In this document: one piece after another, positions 4,266-61,165 of the stretch
Layout of the letters: every line of letters begins with the position of its first letter
Numbering within the stretch: position 1 is the first letter of the stretch
NCBI GenBank assembly: GCA_001830425.1
Contig: MIAA01000014.1
Span: 13,891 to 77,890, forward strand
From: Rhodospirillales bacterium RIFCSPLOWO2_02_FULL_58_16
GTDB taxonomy: Bacteria; Pseudomonadota; Alphaproteobacteria; Rhodospirillales; 2-02-FULL-58-16
Direction: 5' to 3'
Length of the DNA stretch: 64,000 bases
Translations under genes and position numbers: made by a program
Notes under the pieces: generated by a model
Databases searched by the model: none
The model's input: only the letters and a program-made list of their open reading frames with translations
Told to the model about the DNA's origin: nothing

Positions 4266-5000
4266 ATGGTCAAGGAAAAGAATACAGAACCCCGCGTGAG
4301 TTGCTTCACCTGCCAAATGAGGAATCATTCCGAGTGGAGCGTTTTGACTCTACGGGAGCTTGAGTTTCTCGACTCGAAGAAAGTCTGTCGACAGTACGCC
4401 CGTGGCGAGTTTGTTTTTCACGAAGGCGATCCCTGCCGGGGAATTTACTGCGTTGAGAGAGGCCTGGTGGGAATTCGCAAGGCTGACGCCGAAGGCAATT
4501 CCGTTCTGTTGGGGCAGTTGGCCGAGTCGGGCAGCACGCTCGGCTACCGACCCCTCCTTGCCGGAGAGAACCACCGGGCCGGCGCCGAGGTTCTGAAAGA
4601 AAGCACGATCTGCTTTATAGACAAATCATCGGTATGGGAGCTTATCGGCCACAATCCGAACCTGGGAGTTCAGTTCCTGCGCGTCGCCTCAAAGGCTCTC
4701 GGCGAGGCCGAGGAGGAAATCCTTAAGTTGATCACGCTCGATCTGCGCACCCGACTCGTTCACCTGCTGCTGATCTTCATCAAGCATTACGGAACGATCC
4801 TGGAAAGCGGCGCCGTGATGCTGGAGCTTCCTTTGTCGCGCCCGGATATGGCGGCGATGGTCGGCGCCCGCCCCGAATCCGTCTCACGCATTATTCGCAA
4901 AATGGAGAATGACGGCGTCGCCGTCTTTTCAGGCCGCATGGTAAACATTCCCGAGATCGAAAGGCTCCGGCGGGAAATTTGGCGCGATCACCATATTTGA
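4266..5000 (+). CDS. Crp/Fnr family transcriptional regulator
   Basis: 244 aa. It has a cNMP-binding-like beta-roll (GEFVFHEGDPCRGIYCVERG) and a C-terminal HTH (SRPDMAAMVGARPESVSRIIRKMENDG). N-terminal Cys residues are present (CFTC...). Confidence 0.85.
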   Translation: MVKEKNTEPRVSCFTCQMRNHSEWSVLTLRELEFLDSKKVCRQYARGEFVFHEGDPCRGIYCVERGLVGIRKADAEGNSVLLGQLAESGSTLGYRPLLAGENHRAGAEVLKESTICFIDKSSVWELIGHNPNLGVQFLRVASKALGEAEEEILKLITLDLRTRLVHLLLIFIKHYGTILESGAVMLELPLSRPDMAAMVGARPESVSRIIRKMENDGVAVFSGRMVNIPEIERLRREIWRDHHI

Positions 5001-5133: not shown

Positions 5134-5871
5134 ATGAATGGTTCCCAACTCGACCTGACCCGCAGGGATATCGTGAAGAGTCTGGGCGCGGGAGCGGTGG
5201 CGGTAGCGGCGGCTCTGCCGTCGTCCGCCGGAGCGGCGACGGCGGCCAAGTCTCCCCGTTACGGCATGGTCATCGACACCCGGCGCTGCTCCGGGTGTCA
5301 TGCCTGCTCCGTCGCCTGCAAGAGCGAGTTTAATGTCCCTCTGGGTTTAACCCGATCCTGGGTCGAATATATCGAAAAGGGCGATTTCCCCAATGTCAGC
5401 GTCAGCTTCCTGCCGCGTCTGTGCAACCAGTGTCGGCATGCGGCCTGCGCCGATGTCTGTCCTACCGGGGCGACGTACAAGCGCCAAGACGGCATCGTCG
5501 CCATCGATCCCGACATCTGCATAGGCTGCAAATACTGCCTTCAGGCCTGCCCCTATGACGCCCGTTTCATCAACCCGGTCACCGGGGCGGCGGATAAATG
5601 TGACTTCTGCCTGCACAGGATAGAGAAAGGCATTGAGCCGTCTTGCGTCAACACCTGCCCCGGCAGGGCGCGTATCTTCGGCGATCTCAACGATCCCGGC
5701 AGCGAGATATCGAAGGTGATCAGTAGAAATCCGGTGACGGTGCTGCGCAAGGGCATGGGGACGGAGCCTTTTGTTTTCTACATCGCCGCCGATCATGCCG
5801 ACGAGCATGACCGCAAGCGCGGCTGGAACATGCGCGTGACGACCCATCGTCGCCAAAAAGAGAGGAGGTAG
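5134..5871 (+). CDS. 4Fe-4S ferredoxin-type subunit of a molybdopterin oxidoreductase (PsrB/TtrB/NrfC-like), Tat-signal bearing
   Basis: 245 aa. Twin-arginine-like N-terminus (LTRRDIVKSLGAGAVAVAAA). Multiple CxxCxxCxxxCP clusters (CSGCHACSVACK, CNQCRHAACADVCP, CIGCKYCLQACP, CDFC...CVNTCP). Confidence 0.9.
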   Translation: MNGSQLDLTRRDIVKSLGAGAVAVAAALPSSAGAATAAKSPRYGMVIDTRRCSGCHACSVACKSEFNVPLGLTRSWVEYIEKGDFPNVSVSFLPRLCNQCRHAACADVCPTGATYKRQDGIVAIDPDICIGCKYCLQACPYDARFINPVTGAADKCDFCLHRIEKGIEPSCVNTCPGRARIFGDLNDPGSEISKVISRNPVTVLRKGMGTEPFVFYIAADHADEHDRKRGWNMRVTTHRRQKERR

Positions 5872-44807: not shown

Positions 44808-46529
44808 ATGGCTGAAACCGTTCGTGTTTATCGGCAGATATCTCTGCCCGGACTCTGCCCTGTCGAGACGGCTGTACAAGCATTGTCCGAAGGCGGCGCT
44901 GAGAAACGGGGAGCGATCTCTACTCGGCGTGAAGTGGTTGACTTCATTCTCGATTTGATCGGCTACACGGCTGACCGTCCTCTTTATGAGAAAAAGCTGC
45001 TCGAACCATCATTCGGCAATGGTGATTTTCTCTTGGCGGCAATCGAAAGGCTAATTGCGGCATACCAATACGGAAGAAAACAGAAACCACTTGAAGTCGC
45101 CTCCCTCATGTCGTGCATATGCAGCGTGGAACTTCATCGCGACACATTTATCGCAACGGGCAATCGCATTGATGCATTACTCGATACAAGCGGATTCAAG
45201 AAAAATGACCGTCGCGCTCTTCTTGACGCATGGCTCACGCATGGAGATTTTCTCCTTACGTCCTTACCCGGCGATTTTGACTATGTAGCAGGCAACCCTC
45301 CATACATTAGACAAGAACTCATCCCCGATGCCTTGATGGCTGAGTACCGGCGCCGTTTCCGGACAATATATGACCGCGCCGATATCTATGTGCCATTCAT
45401 CGAAAAATCGCTTTCGCTGCTTCGCGAAAGAGGTACGCTGGGGTTTATTTGTGCTGATCGCTGGATGAAGAATCGTTATGGGGGGCCATTGCGACGCCTC
45501 GTGGCAGAGAAATATCACCTTAAATTCTTTATCGACATGGTGGATACGCCGGCCTTCCACTCTGACGTGATTGCTTATCCGGCGATCACAATAATTGCAA
45601 ACGAACCGCCGGGACCGACGCGACTGGCCCATCGCCCGGAAATTAATGAAAAGGCGCTTTCCTCGCTTGCCGAGACGATGTTAAACGGCAGTGGAACGCT
45701 GAACGGGACAGTGGAGGTAATAGAGCAGGTCAGCGCCGGGAAAGAACCTTGGATACTCGAATCTTTCGACCGACTTGCCGTCGTGCGACGGCTTGAACGT
45801 GAGTTTCCAACGCTGAAAGAAGCCGGGTGTAAAGTCGGAATTGGCGTCGCCACGGGCGCCGACCAAGTGTTCATCGCGCCCTTTGACGCCCTTGATGTAG
45901 AGTCTGATCGCAAGCTGCCGCTGGTTATGACGCGGGATATTCTATCCGGCGCGGTACAGTGGCGAGGTTTCGGTGTGATAAATCCGTTTAATGACGAGGG
46001 TGGCCTCGTCGCCCTGGATAAGTATCCGAGGCTCTACGCTTATCTCAAAGAGCATGACGAAAAGATCAAGAAGCGCCACGTTTCACAGAAAAACCCGAAC
46101 AATTGGTATAGAACCATTGACCGCATTTATCCGGCATTGGCGAGACGACCAAAATTGTTGATCCCTGACATTAAGGGTGAAGCGCATGTCGTCTATGAAG
46201 ACGGACACTTCTACCCTCACCATAACCTGTACTTCATCACATCCGACGAATGGGACTTACGGGCGTTACAAGCGGTATTGCTGTCGGGCATTGCCAAGTT
46301 GTTTGTGGCCATATACTCGACCAAAATGCGTGGTGGCTACCTGCGCTTCCAGGCGCAGCATCTCCGGCGCATCCGTGTGCCGCTCTGGCAGAACGTTCCC
46401 GGCGACTTAAAGTTCGATCTGGCCGCCGCAGCCGGAAGCGGCGATATCGCAAGCTGCAACGAAGCTACGTTCAGGCTATACCGCATGAGCAAAGCCGAGC
46501 GCACCATTCTTGCCGGCAATGGAAGTTGA
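44808..46529 (+). CDS. N6-adenine DNA methyltransferase, Eco57I/TaqI-like (modification subunit of a type II R-M)
   Basis: 573 aa. Motif [11 protein letters not shown], motif [12 protein letters not shown]. Its 3' end overlaps the following endonuclease gene. Confidence 0.85.
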
Positions 46530-46536
46530 ATCGCCG

Positions 46537-47262
46537 ATGGCGCTTGACCTTGCAAATTACGAAGCTAAAGCGCGAAACGCCGTAAGATTATTCTGGGGCA
46601 AACGAGAAGCCGCCCGGCAGAAGCAGCTCAAATCAGGCAAGGCTGATCAGGGCGAACGATCCGGTGTCACCGGCGGCAAGAATATGAACGGCTTCCCGGA
46701 TTTGGTTGTCGATCTGGTTAAAGCAAACGGATTGGCGGACGCAGCTATTCTACAAGATGGTCGGGTGCTGACGTTGCCGGGATATTTCCGGCCCACAAAA
46801 CTTTGGGATTTGCTGATCCTTCGGAAGGGCTGCTTGATTGCGGCGTTGGAATTCAAGTCCCAGGTCGGACCATCATTCGGCAACAACTTCAACAACCGCG
46901 CCGAGGAAGCCATAGGCACAGCAGTTGATCTTTGGACTGCCTACCGTGAAGGCGCCTTCGGCGAGCAACCTCGCCCGTTTATCGGCTGGTTGATGCTGCT
47001 GGAGGATGCTCCTGCTTCTTGTTCGCCGGTGCGGGATAGGTCACCGCATTTCCCCGTATTTCCCGACTTCCATAACGCCTCCTATGCAGAACGTTATAAT
47101 GCCCTCTGCAAGAAGCTCGTTCAAGAGCAGATGTACACTGCGGCGTGCATTCTTACCTCGCCGCGAAATACGGGCAATTACTCGGAAATGAGCGATATGA
47201 CCGGCCTGAAGACTTTTGTAACGGCATTTGCCGGACACATTGCGGTCGAAGCTGCGCGGTAG
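46537..47262 (+). CDS. XhoI/PaeR7I-family type II restriction endonuclease
   Basis: [21 protein letters not shown]...[14 protein letters not shown]...[25 protein letters not shown] matches my recollection of the PaeR7I/XhoI family. The start may be 46510, 46519 or 46537. Confidence 0.75.
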
Positions 47263-51027: not shown

Positions 51028-51110
51028 AAGGCGGAACTTGGCGATGGGCGCGGTGCGCCACAGATAACCAAAAAGTTACTGCTATATTTGACAGGGGAGG
51101 GAGCGGAAAA

Positions 51111-51311
51111 GGCTTATCCCGTTGTCCCAGGTGACGAGGATGAACTTAGCAAAGCCGTTGGCGCAGATGGACGCCATAGTCAAAACTCTTCCCAACTCAT
51201 CCTCAATCACGGTATTCCGCACCCCAAACAGAGCAAAAATGGCCCAGAATTACCAAGGCTCTCACCATCGTTCGGGTATGCCGGGCCGAACCTGGGACAA
51301 CGAGATAAGCC
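51111..51311. repeat. 201-bp segment bounded by 21-bp inverted repeats (GGCTTATCCCGTTGTCCCAGG ... CCTGGGACAACGAGATAAGCC; 20/21 match)
   Basis: The inverted repeat is seen directly. The interior has no convincing ORF. It lies at the left edge of the low-GC ParA/RelA-SpoT island. Confidence 0.6.
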
Positions 51312-51483
51312 TTGAGCGGAACCTCAGGTAGTGTAGGAAATGATGAGAAAAATATTCTTATTAATTTCCGTGTGCGGCTGGATGATGTAGCTACAATGCA
51401 GCAAACATAGTAGTATCAGTTCTTATATCTTGGAAATGTGTATTGCATGTCTCGGTAGGTCTGGCTACTCCATTAGGTGAACA

Positions 51484-52587
51484 ATGAAAACCATATCAAT
51501 ATTTAACAATAAGGGCGGTGTTGGTAAAACAACGCTGACTTTTCACTTGGCACATGCTTTAGCTGAAATGAAGCACAAAACGCTTGTCGTCGATTTAGAT
51601 CCCCAATGTAACCTAACTATTCTCGGTATGGATGAAGAAGAACTTCATGAAATATGGTCTGTTGAGGATTCATTTATTGATGATTTCCAAGGGGCAAGAG
51701 AAAAATGTACGCCCGTTGATTTTGATAAGATAATTTCTGAACCTAGATCGGTTCACTTCCTTTTAAAGCCAGCTGAGGATGGTGCTGCAGAAATAGGAAA
51801 GTTGCCACCACCATATAAATTAGCAACTAATTTGGACCTTATCCCAGGTCGTCTCACCATGCATTTATATGAAGATAAGATTGCTGGTCGTTGGAGCGAC
51901 GTATATCAGGGAGACCCCCTCGCGATCCGTACTGTTACCAAACCACGAGAACTTGCCGAGTCTTATGCCAAACAGCATGGGTATGAATATATTATTATGG
52001 ATACATCGCCAAGCCTAGGCACTTTGAACAAGGTAATTATTTCTACAGCAGACGGCTTTCTCATTCCATGTATGCCCGACATGTTTTCTCTATATGGGGT
52101 TCAGAACATTGGGAATGCATTAAGTGTCTGGAAAAAACAATTTGATACAATTTACCATTTACTTTCCTCTGAGAAACGTAAATCCTTTCCGGCCAATTAT
52201 GTGAGACTTCTTGGTTTTACTATTTATAATGCTAAAAAATATTCTGGTAAAGAAAAGCCGTGGAATCTCGCAACAGCGCATTACAATTACGCAAAAAAGA
52301 TTCCTGATGCGATCAATCAATTTATACCATCAGGTGTTAGGGATAGGTTGGAAGAAAAAGCGTTATCGTCCCCTGTAGGCGAAACCGCAATTATGCACAC
52401 TCACAATACCCTCCCCAGTATGGCACAACGCTATCATTTGCCAATGTGGAAAGTCCCATCATGTGATAGTTTGGATAATACCGATGTCTCCACGATAAAA
52501 GGAAACAGAGGTATTTATGAGGATACAAAAAGTAAATACGCCGTGTTTGCGACGGCTCTTTTAACGCGCCTCAAAACTTTAGAATAG
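51484..52587 (+). CDS. ParA/MinD-superfamily (deviant Walker A) ATPase, enlarged (367 aa)
   Basis: MKTISIFNNKGGVGKTTLTFHLA...VVDLDPQCNLT...IIMDTSPSLG. RBS AGGTGA. The DNA is strongly AT-rich. No ParB gene or parS-like repeats are adjacent. Confidence 0.85.
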   Translation: MKTISIFNNKGGVGKTTLTFHLAHALAEMKHKTLVVDLDPQCNLTILGMDEEELHEIWSVEDSFIDDFQGAREKCTPVDFDKIISEPRSVHFLLKPAEDGAAEIGKLPPPYKLATNLDLIPGRLTMHLYEDKIAGRWSDVYQGDPLAIRTVTKPRELAESYAKQHGYEYIIMDTSPSLGTLNKVIISTADGFLIPCMPDMFSLYGVQNIGNALSVWKKQFDTIYHLLSSEKRKSFPANYVRLLGFTIYNAKKYSGKEKPWNLATAHYNYAKKIPDAINQFIPSGVRDRLEEKALSSPVGETAIMHTHNTLPSMAQRYHLPMWKVPSCDSLDNTDVSTIKGNRGIYEDTKSKYAVFATALLTRLKTLE

Positions 52588-52599
52588 GGCGTATGCCCA

Positions 52600-53307
52600 A
52601 TGAAACAGGAAGATTCGAAAGCGATTAGTGCCGTTGCTGCTTTTATTGAGAAGAGGCACGAATTCCAGATTTTCATGGATGGCATCAGCCAGTGGTTTTT
52701 AACTCATCCAAAACTACGACATCCAGATTTTCCCTTTGTTCATTCGGTTAAGGCGCGTCTCAAAAACAATGAACACTTAAAGGAAAAAATTATCCGCAAA
52801 TCTAAGGAGAATATCGAAATTACCAAGGATAATATTTTCGATGAGATTACGGATTTAGCTGGTGTACGGGTTCTTCACTTATATCAAGATCAATTTCGAA
52901 CAATCCATGAAGAATTTCTCGTTAAGGTAAATAAACTGCATGACTGGTATCTACCTGAACATCCAAAGGCGTACACTTGGGATCCAGAGTCGATACAATT
53001 TTTTGAGAACCAAAATATAAAGGTTGAGATTAAGGAAAGTTTCTACACGAGCGTTCATTACCTCGTGAAACCGAGAGAAGATTCGCTCATATGCTGTGAA
53101 ATTCAGGTGCGTACATTGTTTGAAGAAATTTGGGGCGAAATTGATCATGTCCTGAACTACCCTCGACAATCACTCAACTTATCATGCCGTGAACAGCTGT
53201 TGGTTTTGGCAAAACTTGTGGGTGCGGGAAGCCGCCTTGCTGATTCTATTTTCAGAAGCTCTACGGAAAACAACAATTCAAAACATTGGGGCGACCCCGC
53301 CTCTTGA
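52600..53307 (+). CDS. RelA/SpoT-domain protein (synthetase-only, small-alarmone-synthetase/toxSAS-like nucleotide pyrophosphokinase)
   Basis: 235 aa, 12 nt after the ParA-like stop. Motifs: SVKARLKNNEHLKEKIIRK, DLAGVRVLHLY, YTSVHYLV, EIQVRTLFEEIWGEIDH. No HD hydrolase domain. Confidence 0.85.
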   Translation: MKQEDSKAISAVAAFIEKRHEFQIFMDGISQWFLTHPKLRHPDFPFVHSVKARLKNNEHLKEKIIRKSKENIEITKDNIFDEITDLAGVRVLHLYQDQFRTIHEEFLVKVNKLHDWYLPEHPKAYTWDPESIQFFENQNIKVEIKESFYTSVHYLVKPREDSLICCEIQVRTLFEEIWGEIDHVLNYPRQSLNLSCREQLLVLAKLVGAGSRLADSIFRSSTENNNSKHWGDPAS

Positions 53308-53340: not shown

Positions 53341-53604
53341 ATGACGGCAATCACCTTTGATACCCTGAAGTTCGTGGAGCGGCTGAAGGCGGCGGGCATT
53401 CCCGAAGCTCACGCTAAAGCCGAGGCTGAGGCGCTAATCGAGGCCCTGTCCGAGTCGGCGACTAATTCTCTGGCCACCAAACGGGATGTCAGCCGCATCG
53501 AAGTAAAGCTTGTGGAACACGACGGCGAGTTCAAACTCATCAAGTGGATGCTGGGCATCCTCATGGCGGGCGTGATGTCGCTGATCATTAAGTCCTTTTT
53601 CTAG
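53341..53604 (+). CDS. DUF1640-like coiled-coil protein with a C-terminal TM helix
   Basis: 87 aa. FDTLKFVERLKAAGIPEAHAKAEAEAL...KWMLGILMAGVMSLIIK. Confidence 0.65.
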   Translation: MTAITFDTLKFVERLKAAGIPEAHAKAEAEALIEALSESATNSLATKRDVSRIEVKLVEHDGEFKLIKWMLGILMAGVMSLIIKSFF

Positions 53605-53700
53605 AATATCCGTCATAGATTCGGAATCTTTGCAGACGATGCTTGATCATCGGCCCATTCAACCGTGATAATGAGCGGGTAGCGGACACATGGGAATCCG

Positions 53701-54150
53701 ATGAAAAGCCTCGTCATTGCCTTTGCCATCCTGATGATGATCGCCGGCGGTACGGTAAGCGTACTGAAATGGCTTAAAATCGGCCCGTTCGCAGTCCAGG
53801 AGGAAGTGGTCGAGCAGGCGCCTCCCGAGCCGCCGGTTTTTATCGATATCGACCCGCTGACCATTCCCGTTTTTCAGGGAGACAAGGTAGCGGTCACTTT
53901 CCAGGTGCAAATCAAGCTTGAAACCGTGGGCGCCGCCAATGACGCCGTCATCCGCAGGCAGATTCCCCGCATCAGCGACGCTTTTTTGCGTGAACTTTAT
54001 TCTTTTATCCCGGTCCACCTCAAAAAAAATGAGCAGCTCGATTTCGAGGCCATCAGGCAGCGCCTGCTGAGAGTCAGCGACAAGGTGGCGGGGAAAGGAG
54101 TAATCACCAACGTCCTCATTCAATCGGCAACCGCCACCCCCGGCCGCTGA
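53701..54150 (+). CDS. FliL-like (flagellar basal-body-associated family) membrane protein
   Basis: 149 aa. N-terminal TM helix, then IDIDPLTIPVFQGDKVAVTFQVQIKLE...ISDAFLRELY, which is FliL-like. Confidence 0.55.
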   Translation: MKSLVIAFAILMMIAGGTVSVLKWLKIGPFAVQEEVVEQAPPEPPVFIDIDPLTIPVFQGDKVAVTFQVQIKLETVGAANDAVIRRQIPRISDAFLRELYSFIPVHLKKNEQLDFEAIRQRLLRVSDKVAGKGVITNVLIQSATATPGR

Positions 54151-54158
54151 TATGCTCC

Positions 54159-55004
54159 ATGAACCGTAAACGTTTTTCGCTCGTAAAAACCATCGGATTC
54201 AAAAGCTGTCTGGATGTCGTTGACATCGGGGCCAATCCCATAGACGGCGAGGCTCCTTACAAGCGGCTTCTTGATTCGGGACATGCGCTGGTCGTCGGCT
54301 TTGAGCCGAATCCTGACGCCATGAAGATACTGAACGAAAAGAAGGGCCGGAACGAAACCTATCTGCCTTATGCCGTATTTGACGGAAACGTACATCAGTT
54401 CCGTGTTTGCCAATCGCCCGGAATGTCGTCGTTGCTGGAGCCTGACCGGGATATTCTCCGGTATTTCCACGGATTTCCCGATTGGGGGACCGTAAATGAA
54501 CGTCGTGAAATTAAAACCGTGCGCCTTGACGACATCAAAGAAATAAAGAGCATTGATTACCTGAAAATTGATATTCAAGGCGGAGAACTGGAGGTTTTCA
54601 GGAACGGCGTCGGGCAATTGGCGAATTGTCTGGTTATCCATGCCGAGGTCGAATTCCTTCCCATGTACGAAAACCAGCCGCTTTTCTCGGAGGTTGAGAT
54701 ATTCCTTCGCGGACAAGGATTTCTATTCCACCGCTTCGCGCCGTTGGCAAGTCGGGCGGTTCAACCGATGCTCGTAGATAACGATATCCATAAGGGATTG
54801 GGCCAAATATTCTGGGCGGACGCTGTTTTTATCCGTGATTTCACCAAGCTGGACGCGCTAAGTCCGTTACGGCTCAAAAAAATGGCGCTAATTCTCCATG
54901 ATATCTACGGCTCCTGCGATCTGGCGCTTCGCTGCCTCATGGCTTGCGACGGCAAGATGCAAAACGGACTTGCGGAAAAATATATGAAAGCTTTGTCCGA
55001 TTAA
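54159..55004 (+). CDS. FkbM-family methyltransferase
   Basis: 281 aa. VVDIGANPIDG...IDYLKIDIQGGELEVF. Confidence 0.8.
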   Translation: MNRKRFSLVKTIGFKSCLDVVDIGANPIDGEAPYKRLLDSGHALVVGFEPNPDAMKILNEKKGRNETYLPYAVFDGNVHQFRVCQSPGMSSLLEPDRDILRYFHGFPDWGTVNERREIKTVRLDDIKEIKSIDYLKIDIQGGELEVFRNGVGQLANCLVIHAEVEFLPMYENQPLFSEVEIFLRGQGFLFHRFAPLASRAVQPMLVDNDIHKGLGQIFWADAVFIRDFTKLDALSPLRLKKMALILHDIYGSCDLALRCLMACDGKMQNGLAEKYMKALSD

Positions 55005-60418: not shown

Positions 60419-61165
60419 TCAACAAGCGGAGTGAGTCTCCGGATAGGCGTTCCACGTCCGTCCCTTGAATACCCGGCCATTCGCCTTTTTGTGTCGCTTG
60501 ACGCCATCGACTCCCCAGCCGCCCCACTGCTTGAAAAAGAAGGCGACGCCGGCCTTGTCGGCTTGGCGCTTGACGTTTTCGACCCAAGCTTCCTCCATCG
60601 GTCGGGCCTTGTGGCCGGATTCTCCGCCGACGATCACCCAATGCATGCCGGCAAGATCGAAATAGCCGAGGTCTTCCAACTGCGGCTCGATTGAAAGAAA
60701 TCTGACCTTTGCATCGACCCGGCGCAAATGATTGATGCGCGGTAGCCCATAGGCGCGGTCTTCCACCGATACGCCCAACCAGACGTTCGGCGGACAACGG
60801 CGATCAGCAAAATACTCAGGTAGCCGCTCCGCTCGCTTGGTCAGAATCTGGTAGGTGTGCTGGGGGGTCTGGCCGATCACCGCGAACACTTCATCCAGAA
60901 ACGCATCCGGGATATCGCAGTGGAACAGGTCGCTCATCGAATTAACGAAATAGACTGTCGGCTTGCGGCGCGCCAATGGCTGAGCTATGCGCTTAGGGTG
61001 CAGCGCGAGATTAAAACCGTTTTCATAACCGGCGGCCCCCATGACATGAAGACGGCGCGCCATTGTTTCAGCGTAGCAGTGTTTACAACCGGGAGAAATC
61101 TTCGTGCAGCCGGTCGTCGGGTTCCACGTCTGTTCCGTCCATTCGATCTTCGAGTTCGCGCTCAC
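60419..61165 (-). CDS. DUF5131 / phage Gp37-Gp68 family three-Cys protein
   Basis: 248 aa. IEWTEQTWNPTTGCTKISPGCKHCYAE...VNSMSDLFH...VGGESG. It lies 17 nt downstream of rpe on the same strand. Confidence 0.8.
   Translation of the reverse strand: MSANSKIEWTEQTWNPTTGCTKISPGCKHCYAETMARRLHVMGAAGYENGFNLALHPKRIAQPLARRKPTVYFVNSMSDLFHCDIPDAFLDEVFAVIGQTPQHTYQILTKRAERLPEYFADRRCPPNVWLGVSVEDRAYGLPRINHLRRVDAKVRFLSIEPQLEDLGYFDLAGMHWVIVGGESGHKARPMEEAWVENVKRQADKAGVAFFFKQWGGWGVDGVKRHKKANGRVFKGRTWNAYPETHSAC

Follow-up and report, generated by a model that had tools for sequence, protein, structure and literature searches.

What might a stand-alone alarmone synthetase do when its gene is coupled to that of a ParA-type ATPase? 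The question is raised by two adjacent open reading frames (ORFs), ORF1 and ORF2, in a 64,000-nucleotide stretch of DNA from Rhodospirillales bacterium RIFCSPLOWO2_02_FULL_58_16 (GenBank assembly GCA_001830425.1, contig MIAA01000014.1, positions 13,891 to 77,890 of the forward strand), referred to here as the window. A first-pass annotation made from the letters alone had read the pair as a possible toxin or defence module, and this reading is supported, with qualifications, by the computational analysis reported here: the pair is a candidate defence system with a small alarmone synthetase (SAS) as effector. Strict pairing of the two genes across bacterial phyla and archaea, together with recurrent placement in a hotspot of P2-like prophages, therefore makes a phage-defence module the most likely function. 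More precisely, we hold with moderate confidence that the pair is a self-contained mobile conflict module, most likely acting against phages by abortive infection, in which the ATPase is predicted to gate a RelQ-like synthetase.

Both ORFs are intact, and their boundaries in the ORF list coincide with 51484-53307, as first flagged. The features of the cassette are as follows.

51484-52587, forward strand: ORF1, 367 aa, ParA/AAA_31 ATPase; proposed sensor/regulator
52600-53307, forward strand: ORF2, 235 aa, RelA_SpoT synthetase without a hydrolase domain; proposed effector
52588-52599, forward strand: intercistronic spacer of 12 nt, GGCGTATGCCCA
51330-51483, forward strand: AT-rich leader of the cassette, where the G+C content (GC) falls (composition profile and sequence)
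51475-51480, forward strand: Shine-Dalgarno sequence AGGTGA of ORF1, ending 3 nt before the ATG
51511-51534, forward strand: deviant Walker A motif KGGVGKTT, ORF1 residues 10-17, with signature lysine K10; invariant in a 56-sequence alignment
52756-53169, forward strand: synthetase catalytic core, ORF2 residues 53-190; key residues invariant in 61 family members

The two genes had been described as tightly coupled, with a 12-nt spacer and a ribosome-binding site for each. The spacer is exact by the ORF coordinates and the site of ORF1 is as described, but that of ORF2 is weak, being just AGGG 12 nt upstream of the start.

Conservation of the pair across genomes

An alignment of ORF2 relatives was scanned against one genome per species (185,579 species genomes), and at least 331 ORF2-type loci were confirmed, a lower bound limited by the search pattern. 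The genome-locus statistics refer to the best 80 of the 331 loci (51-71% identity), whose hosts comprise alpha-, beta-, gamma- and deltaproteobacteria, Acidobacteria, Bacteroidota, Firmicutes, Chloroflexi, many Poribacteria and the archaea Methanobacterium and Methanothrix. In 78 of these 80 loci the gene just upstream, in the same orientation, encodes a full-length ORF1 homologue (360-670 bits); in the remaining two the contig ends at the ORF2 gene, hence the neighbours were kept together in 78 of 78 testable loci. For the reciprocal test an ORF1 alignment was searched against IMG/VR and metagenome contigs, where, whenever the contig extended far enough beyond a close ORF1 homologue (at least 45% identity), an ORF2 homologue followed it.

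Junctions in 120 homologous pairs were usually tight, with a 4-nt overlap in 30 pairs and a distance of 0-14 nt in 58, which suggests translational coupling of ORF1 and ORF2. No third conserved gene was present, the largest flank cluster comprising 6 loci. Pairwise identities of the ORF1 and ORF2 proteins correlated (r = 0.86), and the two genes co-evolve. An exhaustive profile search returned 179 clusters (50% identity) at E<=1e-30, so that the family is real but of moderate size.

Of 72,556 plasmid records only one, the Caballeronia megaplasmid pNK81, carried the full pair. The more distant ORF2 relatives, with 42% identity or less (pXO1, a Geobacillus plasmid, a Vibrio phage), were longer or different proteins without the ATPase, those on pXO1 and Geobacillus plasmids being ~345 aa long and 37-42% identical. 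Isolated phage genomes held no close homologue, and the BFVD structures held distant RelA/SpoT homologue (RSH) folds only.

Disrupted copies were also encountered. In locus L064 (3358-6657) a GC-rich insert of ~1.4 kb resembling an insertion sequence (IS) interrupts ORF1 and leaves ORF2 intact. Imperfect inverted repeats of 19 nt (4309-4327 and 5662-5680) form the ends of the insert, which contains a 431-aa ORF without a Pfam match and is possibly an unclassified IS. At several further loci ORF1 was frameshifted and ORF2 intact, possibly through assembly errors.

Mobility and the P2-like prophage hotspot

The cassette had been placed between thiL and a DUF1640 gene, in DNA far more AT-rich than flanks of ~60% GC, and horizontal acquisition had been suggested on that ground. 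The composition profile agrees with this description. The GC is 0.385-0.417 over 51400-53200, an island of ~2 kb, compared with 0.58-0.65 upstream (rib/nusB/thiL genes, including ribBA) and 0.60-0.64 over the downstream H+-PPase gene. The cassette is flanked upstream by thiL (Pfam AIRS/AIRS_C) and downstream by a short DUF1640/CCDC90-like ORF whose score lies under the Pfam cutoff. Across hosts, cassette GC was more than 0.03 below that of the flanks in 59 of 75 genomes (mean -0.089) and above by that margin in none; a low-GC island is thus characteristic of the module in general.

Immediate neighbours were heterogeneous (128 Pfam families among 149 proteins), housekeeping genes being mixed with transposases, OLD/AriA-like ATPases, MADS, a type ISP restriction-modification (RM) system and phage GPA. 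Individual contexts included an rve transposase (L245), a resolvase with McrB-N/NOV_C and an IS (L246, Burkholderia contaminans), and a region resembling an integrative and conjugative element (ICE) with CHAT-TPR, SSB, ArdC, an integrase and IS91 (L247/L248). The cassette has been acquired horizontally and is mobile.

On IMG/VR contigs the flanks were dominated by P2-family hallmarks (GPA, portal, gpP-type large terminase, GPO scaffold). A P2-like prophage setting, recognized by hallmark genes in the flanks, was found in 11 of 129 close-pair loci, and gpA lay on one side and the portal gene gpQ on the other in L070 (Edwardsiella ictaluri ATCC 33202), L092, L093, L096, L097, L109, L111 and L114. 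The same placement is seen in Escherichia coli J31, where the RefSeq gene order runs integrase, CI and further genes, then replication endonuclease, hypothetical protein, DinI, ParA family protein, RelA/SpoT domain protein, portal, terminase and GPO, and where the pair is the sole variable hotspot cargo besides DinI. The E. coli copy (WP_089588522.1 and WP_176599854.1) was present in 7 of 5426 complete E. coli genomes, and is 52% identical to the window protein for ORF1 (363 aa aligned) and 49% for ORF2 (208 aa aligned). The cos-proximal gpA-gpQ interval of P2-like phages, the old/tin site in P2, is an anti-phage hotspot (Rousset et al. 2022, PMC9122126). Recurrent placement of the cassette there, in at least eight loci and E. 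coli J31, lends independent support to the defence reading; elsewhere its neighbourhood is mixed. As the E. coli version is native to a P2 prophage, toxicity, alarmone chemistry and phage protection are directly testable in a standard model. In one of the P2-like prophages (L109, 10112-11347) a gene for a DUF3644 protein stands between the cassette and the portal gene.

ORF2, a small alarmone synthetase-like protein

The sole Pfam match of ORF2 is RelA_SpoT (PF04607; 60.2 bits against a cutoff of 27, residues 53-190). No HD hydrolase, TGS or ACT domain was found by Pfam or in the structural model, which comprises a SYNTH core and terminal helices. The synthetase motifs recognized in the first-pass annotation were all invariant among 61 sequences (R53-x-K55, D85-LAGVR, Y149-x-S-x-H153, E167-IQVRT and H183), as were K145, S151, Q169 and R171, and they align with the equivalents in the RelQ-type chains 2be3 and 3l9d. 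By established RSH enzymology, R53 and K55 would serve the ATP phosphates, D85 the Mg2+ ion and E167 as catalytic Glu, and K145-x-S-x-Y149-x-S-x-H153 would be the acceptor, G-loop-like motif. By domain score, motifs and the lack of hydrolase and regulatory domains ORF2 is a SAS, that is, a single-domain RSH. On the same ground the invariant motifs, the K-x-S-x-Y-x-S-x-H loop included, would favour a nucleotide acceptor and alarmone synthesis, a tRNA acceptor also being possible.

In the AlphaFold2 (AF2) model of ORF2 (predicted local distance difference test score, pLDDT, 88.3) the SYNTH alpha/beta core is preceded by two N-terminal helices and followed by a long C-terminal one. By both fold and profile-sequence comparison its nearest relatives were RelP/RelQ (2be3, 3l9d, 6ewz/6ex0/6fgj, 5dec/5ded; E~1e-9 over ~220 columns), the match covering nearly the full length, both terminal helical regions included, with the ATP-binding, Mg2+, G-loop and catalytic Glu motifs in common. 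Toxic SAS (toxSAS) structures ranked behind, CapRel 34th (6e-6) and FaRel2 45th (2e-3), and an exported SAS gave 6e-5; the FaRel2, CapRel and Tas1 chains gave no sequence match to ORF2 at E<=1. ORF2 differs from RelP/RelQ in sharing only ~20% identity, in its obligate linkage to an ATPase, in its mobility and AT-richness, and in the family-specific invariant cysteines C165, C166 and C196. Membership of the RelQ/YjbM housekeeping SAS was rejected at 41.7 bits on the NCBIfam model YjbM (NF053588, cutoff 320); because it falls below this equivalog cutoff, ORF2 is regarded as a family of its own.

These results divide the earlier proposal that ORF2 resembles toxSASs. The conserved bicistronic arrangement with a dedicated partner gene, the exclusion from RelQ and the patchy, AT-rich, mobile distribution agree with it, but in fold and sequence ORF2 is nearer to RelP/RelQ than to FaRel2 or CapRel, so that it is the gene context, and not assignment to a subfamily, that carries the toxSAS label.

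ORF1, an enlarged ParA-like ATPase

ORF1 matched AAA_31 in Pfam (2e-30, 106 bits) and also CbiA. As had been noted from the translation, it carries a deviant Walker A motif, NNKGGVGKTT (residues 8-17), and at 367 aa exceeds the solved Soj/ParA chains (255-276 aa) by ~100 aa. K10-GGVG-K15-T, the Walker A' residues D37/D39 and the Walker B D173 (DTSPSLG) were invariant in the family alignment; the top matches in the family were 67-87% identical. The AF2 model (pLDDT 86.9) has the Soj/ParA fold, with Foldseek matches to Soj/ParA at E~1e-9; by model and alignment, it has extra helices relative to Soj in two places, an insertion following switch I and an extension of the C terminus. A HMMER alignment of Soj to ORF1 spans only the P-loop and Walker B segments. 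The closest structure was 3PG5 (DIP2308 of Corynebacterium diphtheriae, 361 aa), a structural-genomics protein of unknown function, with Soj/ParA next. The deviant Walker A P-loop fold is common to ORF1, 3PG5 and the Soj/ParA partition ATPases; 3PG5 also shares the extra length and, over residues 1-334, the family motifs NNKGGVGKTT, DPQCN and C-terminal MH..P..AQ..H.P.

Two known families were tried and rejected for ORF1. It scored 76.6 bits on the NCBIfam model ParA_partition (NF041546, cutoff 180), and was accompanied by no ParB, tandem repeats or conserved third gene; on the MinD model TIGR01968 it scored 33 (cutoff 212.9), with no min genes nearby. The earlier remark that ORF1 lacks a ParB gene or centromere-like repeats in its vicinity held for the window, where Pfam annotation placed no ParB, integrase or transposase within ~10 kb of the cassette and a repeat search found no centromere-like tandem repeats at it. 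ORF1 thus differs from Soj/ParA in having neither ParB nor parS as well as in its length.

Two cysteines of ORF1 are invariant in the family, C42 (DPQ-C-N, after switch I) and C196 (P-C-M-P-D), and in ORF2 C165-C166 lie directly before the catalytic Glu. The invariant cysteines of both proteins may point to a sensitivity to redox state or metals.

Distant ATPases of the same clade with other partners

Searches with ORF1 also returned 94 full-length relatives of ~330 aa at 25-33% identity without a SAS. Beside these distant ATPases stood a downstream SIR2_2 protein in 22 loci (PADLOC ThsA-SIR2 at 7e-30, LmuA, Dsr), an upstream protein with SLFN_AlbA_2 and HATPase_c_4 domains in 28, a pair of small ORFs in 12 (human-gut phage contigs) and an AriA-like ATPase in 2. 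The two groups meet in L078, where one of the divergent ATPases has a close homologue of ORF2 as its partner. Defence systems typically exchange effectors in this way around an NTPase that stays the same.

An example of the SIR2 arrangement is L139 (7965-9878), where an AAA_31 ATPase of ~330 aa, without a PADLOC system match, is followed by a SIR2_2 protein of ~289 aa; this may be an undescribed defence pair of an ATPase and a NADase. The Schlafen-type arrangement is exemplified by L120 (6755-8981), with the SLFN_AlbA_2 plus HATPase_c_4 protein (~395-414 aa) directly upstream of the ATPase, and the small-ORF arrangement by L122 (7699-9325), with the ATPase between a 74-aa ORF upstream and a 95-aa ORF downstream, both without Pfam or PADLOC matches.

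Relation to described systems

The first-pass annotation had taken the pairing of a ParA-type ATPase with a SAS to be new. No paper describing the pair was found, but a table row precedes it, and a related kind of dyad was predicted in 2013. Rousset et al. 2022 (Cell Host Microbe) catalogued the pair, giving neither comment nor name, in their Table S5B (#110, 29 occurrences); it is not discussed in their text, and Table S2 of assayed systems has no ParA, AAA_31 or RelA_SpoT entry (PMC9122126). Within the literature covered on toxSAS, NetFlax, PANGU, HEPN, polyvalent proteins, NTP-dependent conflict systems, exported SAS and P2/P4 hotspots, which stopped short of subscription-only papers and several supplements, no ParA plus RelA/SpoT pair was found besides this row; the pair is therefore catalogued but uncharacterised. 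The E. coli pair of Rousset et al. is the same system as that of the window, with the same gene order and tight junction. It lies within the gpA-gpQ interval of a P2-like prophage, whereas the window copy is a naked island between thiL and the DUF1640 gene.

Conflict systems built on a SAS so far comprise the toxin-antitoxin (TA) toxSASs, CapRel and PANGU, with small antitoxins, hydrolases, fused domains or a nucleoid protein as partners. The toxSASs (FaRel, FaRel2, PhRel, PhRel2, CapRel) are TA and defence systems (Jimmy et al. 2020, PMC7229694). Like the window pair, they have a stand-alone RSH synthetase without a hydrolase, often in an overlapping bicistronic operon on mobile DNA, with intact catalytic residues. 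Their partners are a small antitoxin, a small alarmone hydrolase (SAH), Panacea/PAD1 or a fused pseudo-ZBD, in contrast to the ParA-fold ATPase found here.

PANGU type I consists of a YejK-like nucleoid-associated protein (NAP), Pag1A, and a GRel SAS, Pag1B; the SAS alone is an inert tetramer that is activated by the sensor (10.64898/2026.04.06.716658). The two-gene arrangement, with a separate sensor controlling a SAS effector, parallels that proposed for ORF1 and ORF2, and the PANGU sensor is a DNA- or nucleoid-associated protein as ParA/Soj-family ATPases generally are nucleoid binders. The sensor family is NdpA/YejK, however, and not the ParA fold, and Pag1B (~330 aa) has a C-terminal DNA-mimic domain that docks the sensor, whereas ORF2 has one C-terminal helix beyond its core. 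Membership of PANGU was rejected on these two grounds, the ParA fold in place of a YejK-like NAP partner and the lack of a DNA-mimic (DMK) domain on ORF2.

A further parallel is provided by dyads of a ParA/Soj-like ATPase and a HEPN protein (MAE_18760), which were predicted to be TA-like with the ATPase as putative antitoxin or regulator (Anantharaman et al. 2013, Biol Direct, PMC3710099). In these dyads, as here, an ATPase gene accompanies a putative toxin gene, and both arrangements are known by prediction; the effector is an RNase-type HEPN, not a pyrophosphokinase. The Schlafen-domain partners of the distant ORF1-like ATPases fit the same theme.

Proposed function and alternatives

In the proposed abortive-infection module ORF2 would be the effector, a RelP/RelQ-like pyrophosphokinase that moves pyrophosphate from ATP to a purine-nucleotide acceptor. 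Its product would be (p)ppGpp and/or (p)ppApp, with ATP being consumed and growth arrested. ORF1 would be the obligate regulator, with intact motifs for an ATP-sandwich dimer and for hydrolysis, family-specific helical insertions and the C-terminal extension, and its nucleotide-bound, dimeric or surface-bound state would gate the synthetase. The change of state in ORF1 that licenses ORF2 would be set off by an infection cue, for which a phage protein, a shift in ATP/ADP and the loss or alteration of nucleoid DNA are candidates. In this scheme we infer the physical ORF1-ORF2 complex, the product and toxicity of ORF2, the trigger, and whether ORF1 represses or activates. We lean slightly towards ORF1 licensing or activating ORF2 rather than acting as a classical antitoxin, because ORF1 is a large conserved enzyme and not a labile antitoxin, ORF1 is split in L064 with ORF2 intact, and the SAS of PANGU is inert until activated.

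Several observations weigh against this reading. Both proteins are unusually conserved for defence genes, ORF1 having a mean column identity of 75%. The arginine used by Soj for non-specific DNA binding appears, by motif alignment, not to be conserved in ORF1. Most immediate neighbours of the cassette are ordinary housekeeping genes, and enrichment in defence islands appears only modest. In PADLOC-DB 2.0 ORF2 had no match, ORF1 had only a 37-residue P-loop match to PDC-M28B, and no system was called. By fold ORF2 is closest to the non-toxic housekeeping RelP/RelQ. The P2 hotspot also holds non-defence cargo, including putative partition systems. Finally, the state of L064 may be due to a polar effect that abolishes ORF2 expression and not to ORF2 being harmless.

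The same observations bear on the alternatives. A classical TA system, in which ORF2 would be a constitutively toxic SAS and ORF1 its antitoxin, acting by binding, ATP-dependent remodelling or phosphorylation so as to stabilise a mobile element, has in its favour the putative-antitoxin-first order, the overlapping junctions and the strict pairing, all of them TA-like. An antitoxin role for ParA/Soj-like ATPases has been postulated in the HEPN dyads (Anantharaman et al. 2013), and a TA-like conserved arrangement predicted toxicity for five SAS subfamilies (PMC7229694). Nevertheless, a large, well-folded and highly conserved ORF1 is unlike a small labile antitoxin, ORF2 is nearest to non-toxic RelP/RelQ, ORF1 is disrupted or frameshifted in the loci described above (the latter perhaps through assembly errors), and many copies, that of the window included, sit in stable chromosomal housekeeping contexts without an element to stabilise; we regard such a system as unlikely. 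Those housekeeping flanks, which in the window are thiL/nusB/rib genes, would suit non-conflict stress signalling better, with ORF2 as an ordinary SAS adjusting (p)ppGpp and ORF1 as a ParA/MinD-like positional or nucleotide-state tuner, and so would the strong purifying selection on both proteins and the RelP/RelQ-like fold with all catalytic residues. This account fits poorly with a rare and patchy distribution (at least 331 loci in 185,579 species genomes, 7 of 5426 E. coli), a consistent AT-rich bias across hosts, carriage in P2 prophage hotspots and in ICE-like and IS-rich regions, paralogous ATPases paired with SIR2 and Schlafen-type proteins, and an ORF2 score under the RelQ equivalog cutoff, and we consider it distinctly improbable.

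Two further alternatives take the mobile element as the beneficiary. As a prophage weapon the pair would exclude related superinfecting phages or control lysogen physiology, and would not be immunity owned by the host. Its presence within intact P2-like prophages agrees with this, as do the exclusion of other phages by prophage-encoded toxSASs (cited in PMC7229694) and the inter-viral competition mediated by P2 hotspot systems (PMC9122126). P2 hallmarks, however, flank a small minority of close-pair loci, and most copies, that of the window included, are not surrounded by a prophage, which leaves this account with little probability; its mechanism overlaps that of the abortive-infection module, the difference lying mainly in who benefits. 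Least probable by far is a partition or maintenance role, with ORF1 segregating a prophage, plasmid or ICE in the manner of ParA and ORF2 as an unusual adaptor or regulator in place of ParB. ORF1 does have the Soj/ParA fold, one copy is on the Caballeronia megaplasmid, and putative partition systems occupy the gpA-gpQ hotspot in about a quarter of P2-like phages (PMC9122126). Against this, more than 120 loci are without ParB, centromere-like repeats or a conserved third gene, ORF1 falls under the ParA_partition cutoff, and ORF2 has no DNA-binding domain and appears to be an enzyme with an intact pyrophosphokinase active site; most copies are chromosomal, a single plasmid record carrying the full pair. 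The first-pass position that ORF1 is not an ordinary partition ParA is upheld by these results.

The abortive-infection module may also be one instance of something broader. We propose tentatively, and consider it possible though rather doubtful, that the enlarged 3PG5-type ParA-like ATPases are an unrecognised family of defence sensors with swappable effectors (alarmone synthetase, SIR2 NADase, Schlafen/HEPN-type proteins, AriA-like ATPases), which guard a conserved cell feature and activate an inert RelQ-like synthetase when a phage perturbs it. The guarded feature might be nucleoid DNA integrity, analogous to the YejK sensor of PANGU, or the ATP/ADP state. Perturbation would switch the oligomeric or nucleotide state of the ATPase, and the synthetase would be activated rather than merely released. 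Guarding of a conserved feature would explain the strong conservation of both proteins in bacteria and archaea.

If true, an obligate ParA-fold ATPase partner would add a new regulatory logic to SAS conflict systems, and the ParA/MinD superfamily, known for cargo positioning, would gain a role in immunity. The system is compact (~1.8 kb) and widespread, occurring in many bacterial phyla and in methanogenic archaea, and the sister pairings (ATPase plus SIR2, Schlafen-type protein plus ATPase) suggest a broader modular family missed by current defence-finding databases.

Other features of the window

The edges of the island were searched for further elements. Neither att-like direct repeats nor a tRNA were present flanking it, Rfam gave no match in 50.5-54.2 kb, and a promoter and terminator scan, including a sigma-70 scan upstream of ORF1, gave nothing above chance to mark the operon ends. 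Only one repeat near the island is notable, an inverted repeat with 24-nt arms (51109-51132 and 51290-51313) that are 96% complementary; it occurs once in the window and lies in the thiL-ORF1 spacer, immediately ahead of the fall in GC. As RNA this region (221 nt) folds at -83.6 kcal/mol (z = -4.7); it could be an element of the miniature inverted-repeat transposable (MITE-like) kind or a long hairpin.

Downstream, three genes (53341-55004), encoding the DUF1640/CCDC90-like ORF, a FliL-like ORF and an FkbM methyltransferase, have a below-average GC of 0.46-0.55, and the entire thiL-hppA interval may be a variable region. An ORF2 protein identical to that of the window is on record from the metagenome-assembled genome 'Rhodospirillales bacterium RIFCSPLOWO2_12_FULL_58_28'.

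A second small defence insertion lies 4.2 kb upstream of the cassette, where ribD and ribE of the riboflavin operon are separated by an inserted type II RM pair (44808-47262). The methylase of the pair (44808-46529) is of the Eco57I type and carries a TaqI_C specificity domain, and the endonuclease (46510-47262) belongs to the XhoI family (Pfam XhoI 2.6e-93); GC is 0.52-0.56 here compared with ~0.6 in the flanks. Further downstream, a DUF5131 protein (Pfam 2e-107) is encoded on the reverse strand at 60419-61165 among ORFs without Pfam matches. The DUF5131 family was formerly annotated as phage Gp37/Gp68, and this gene may be the remnant of another mobile element.

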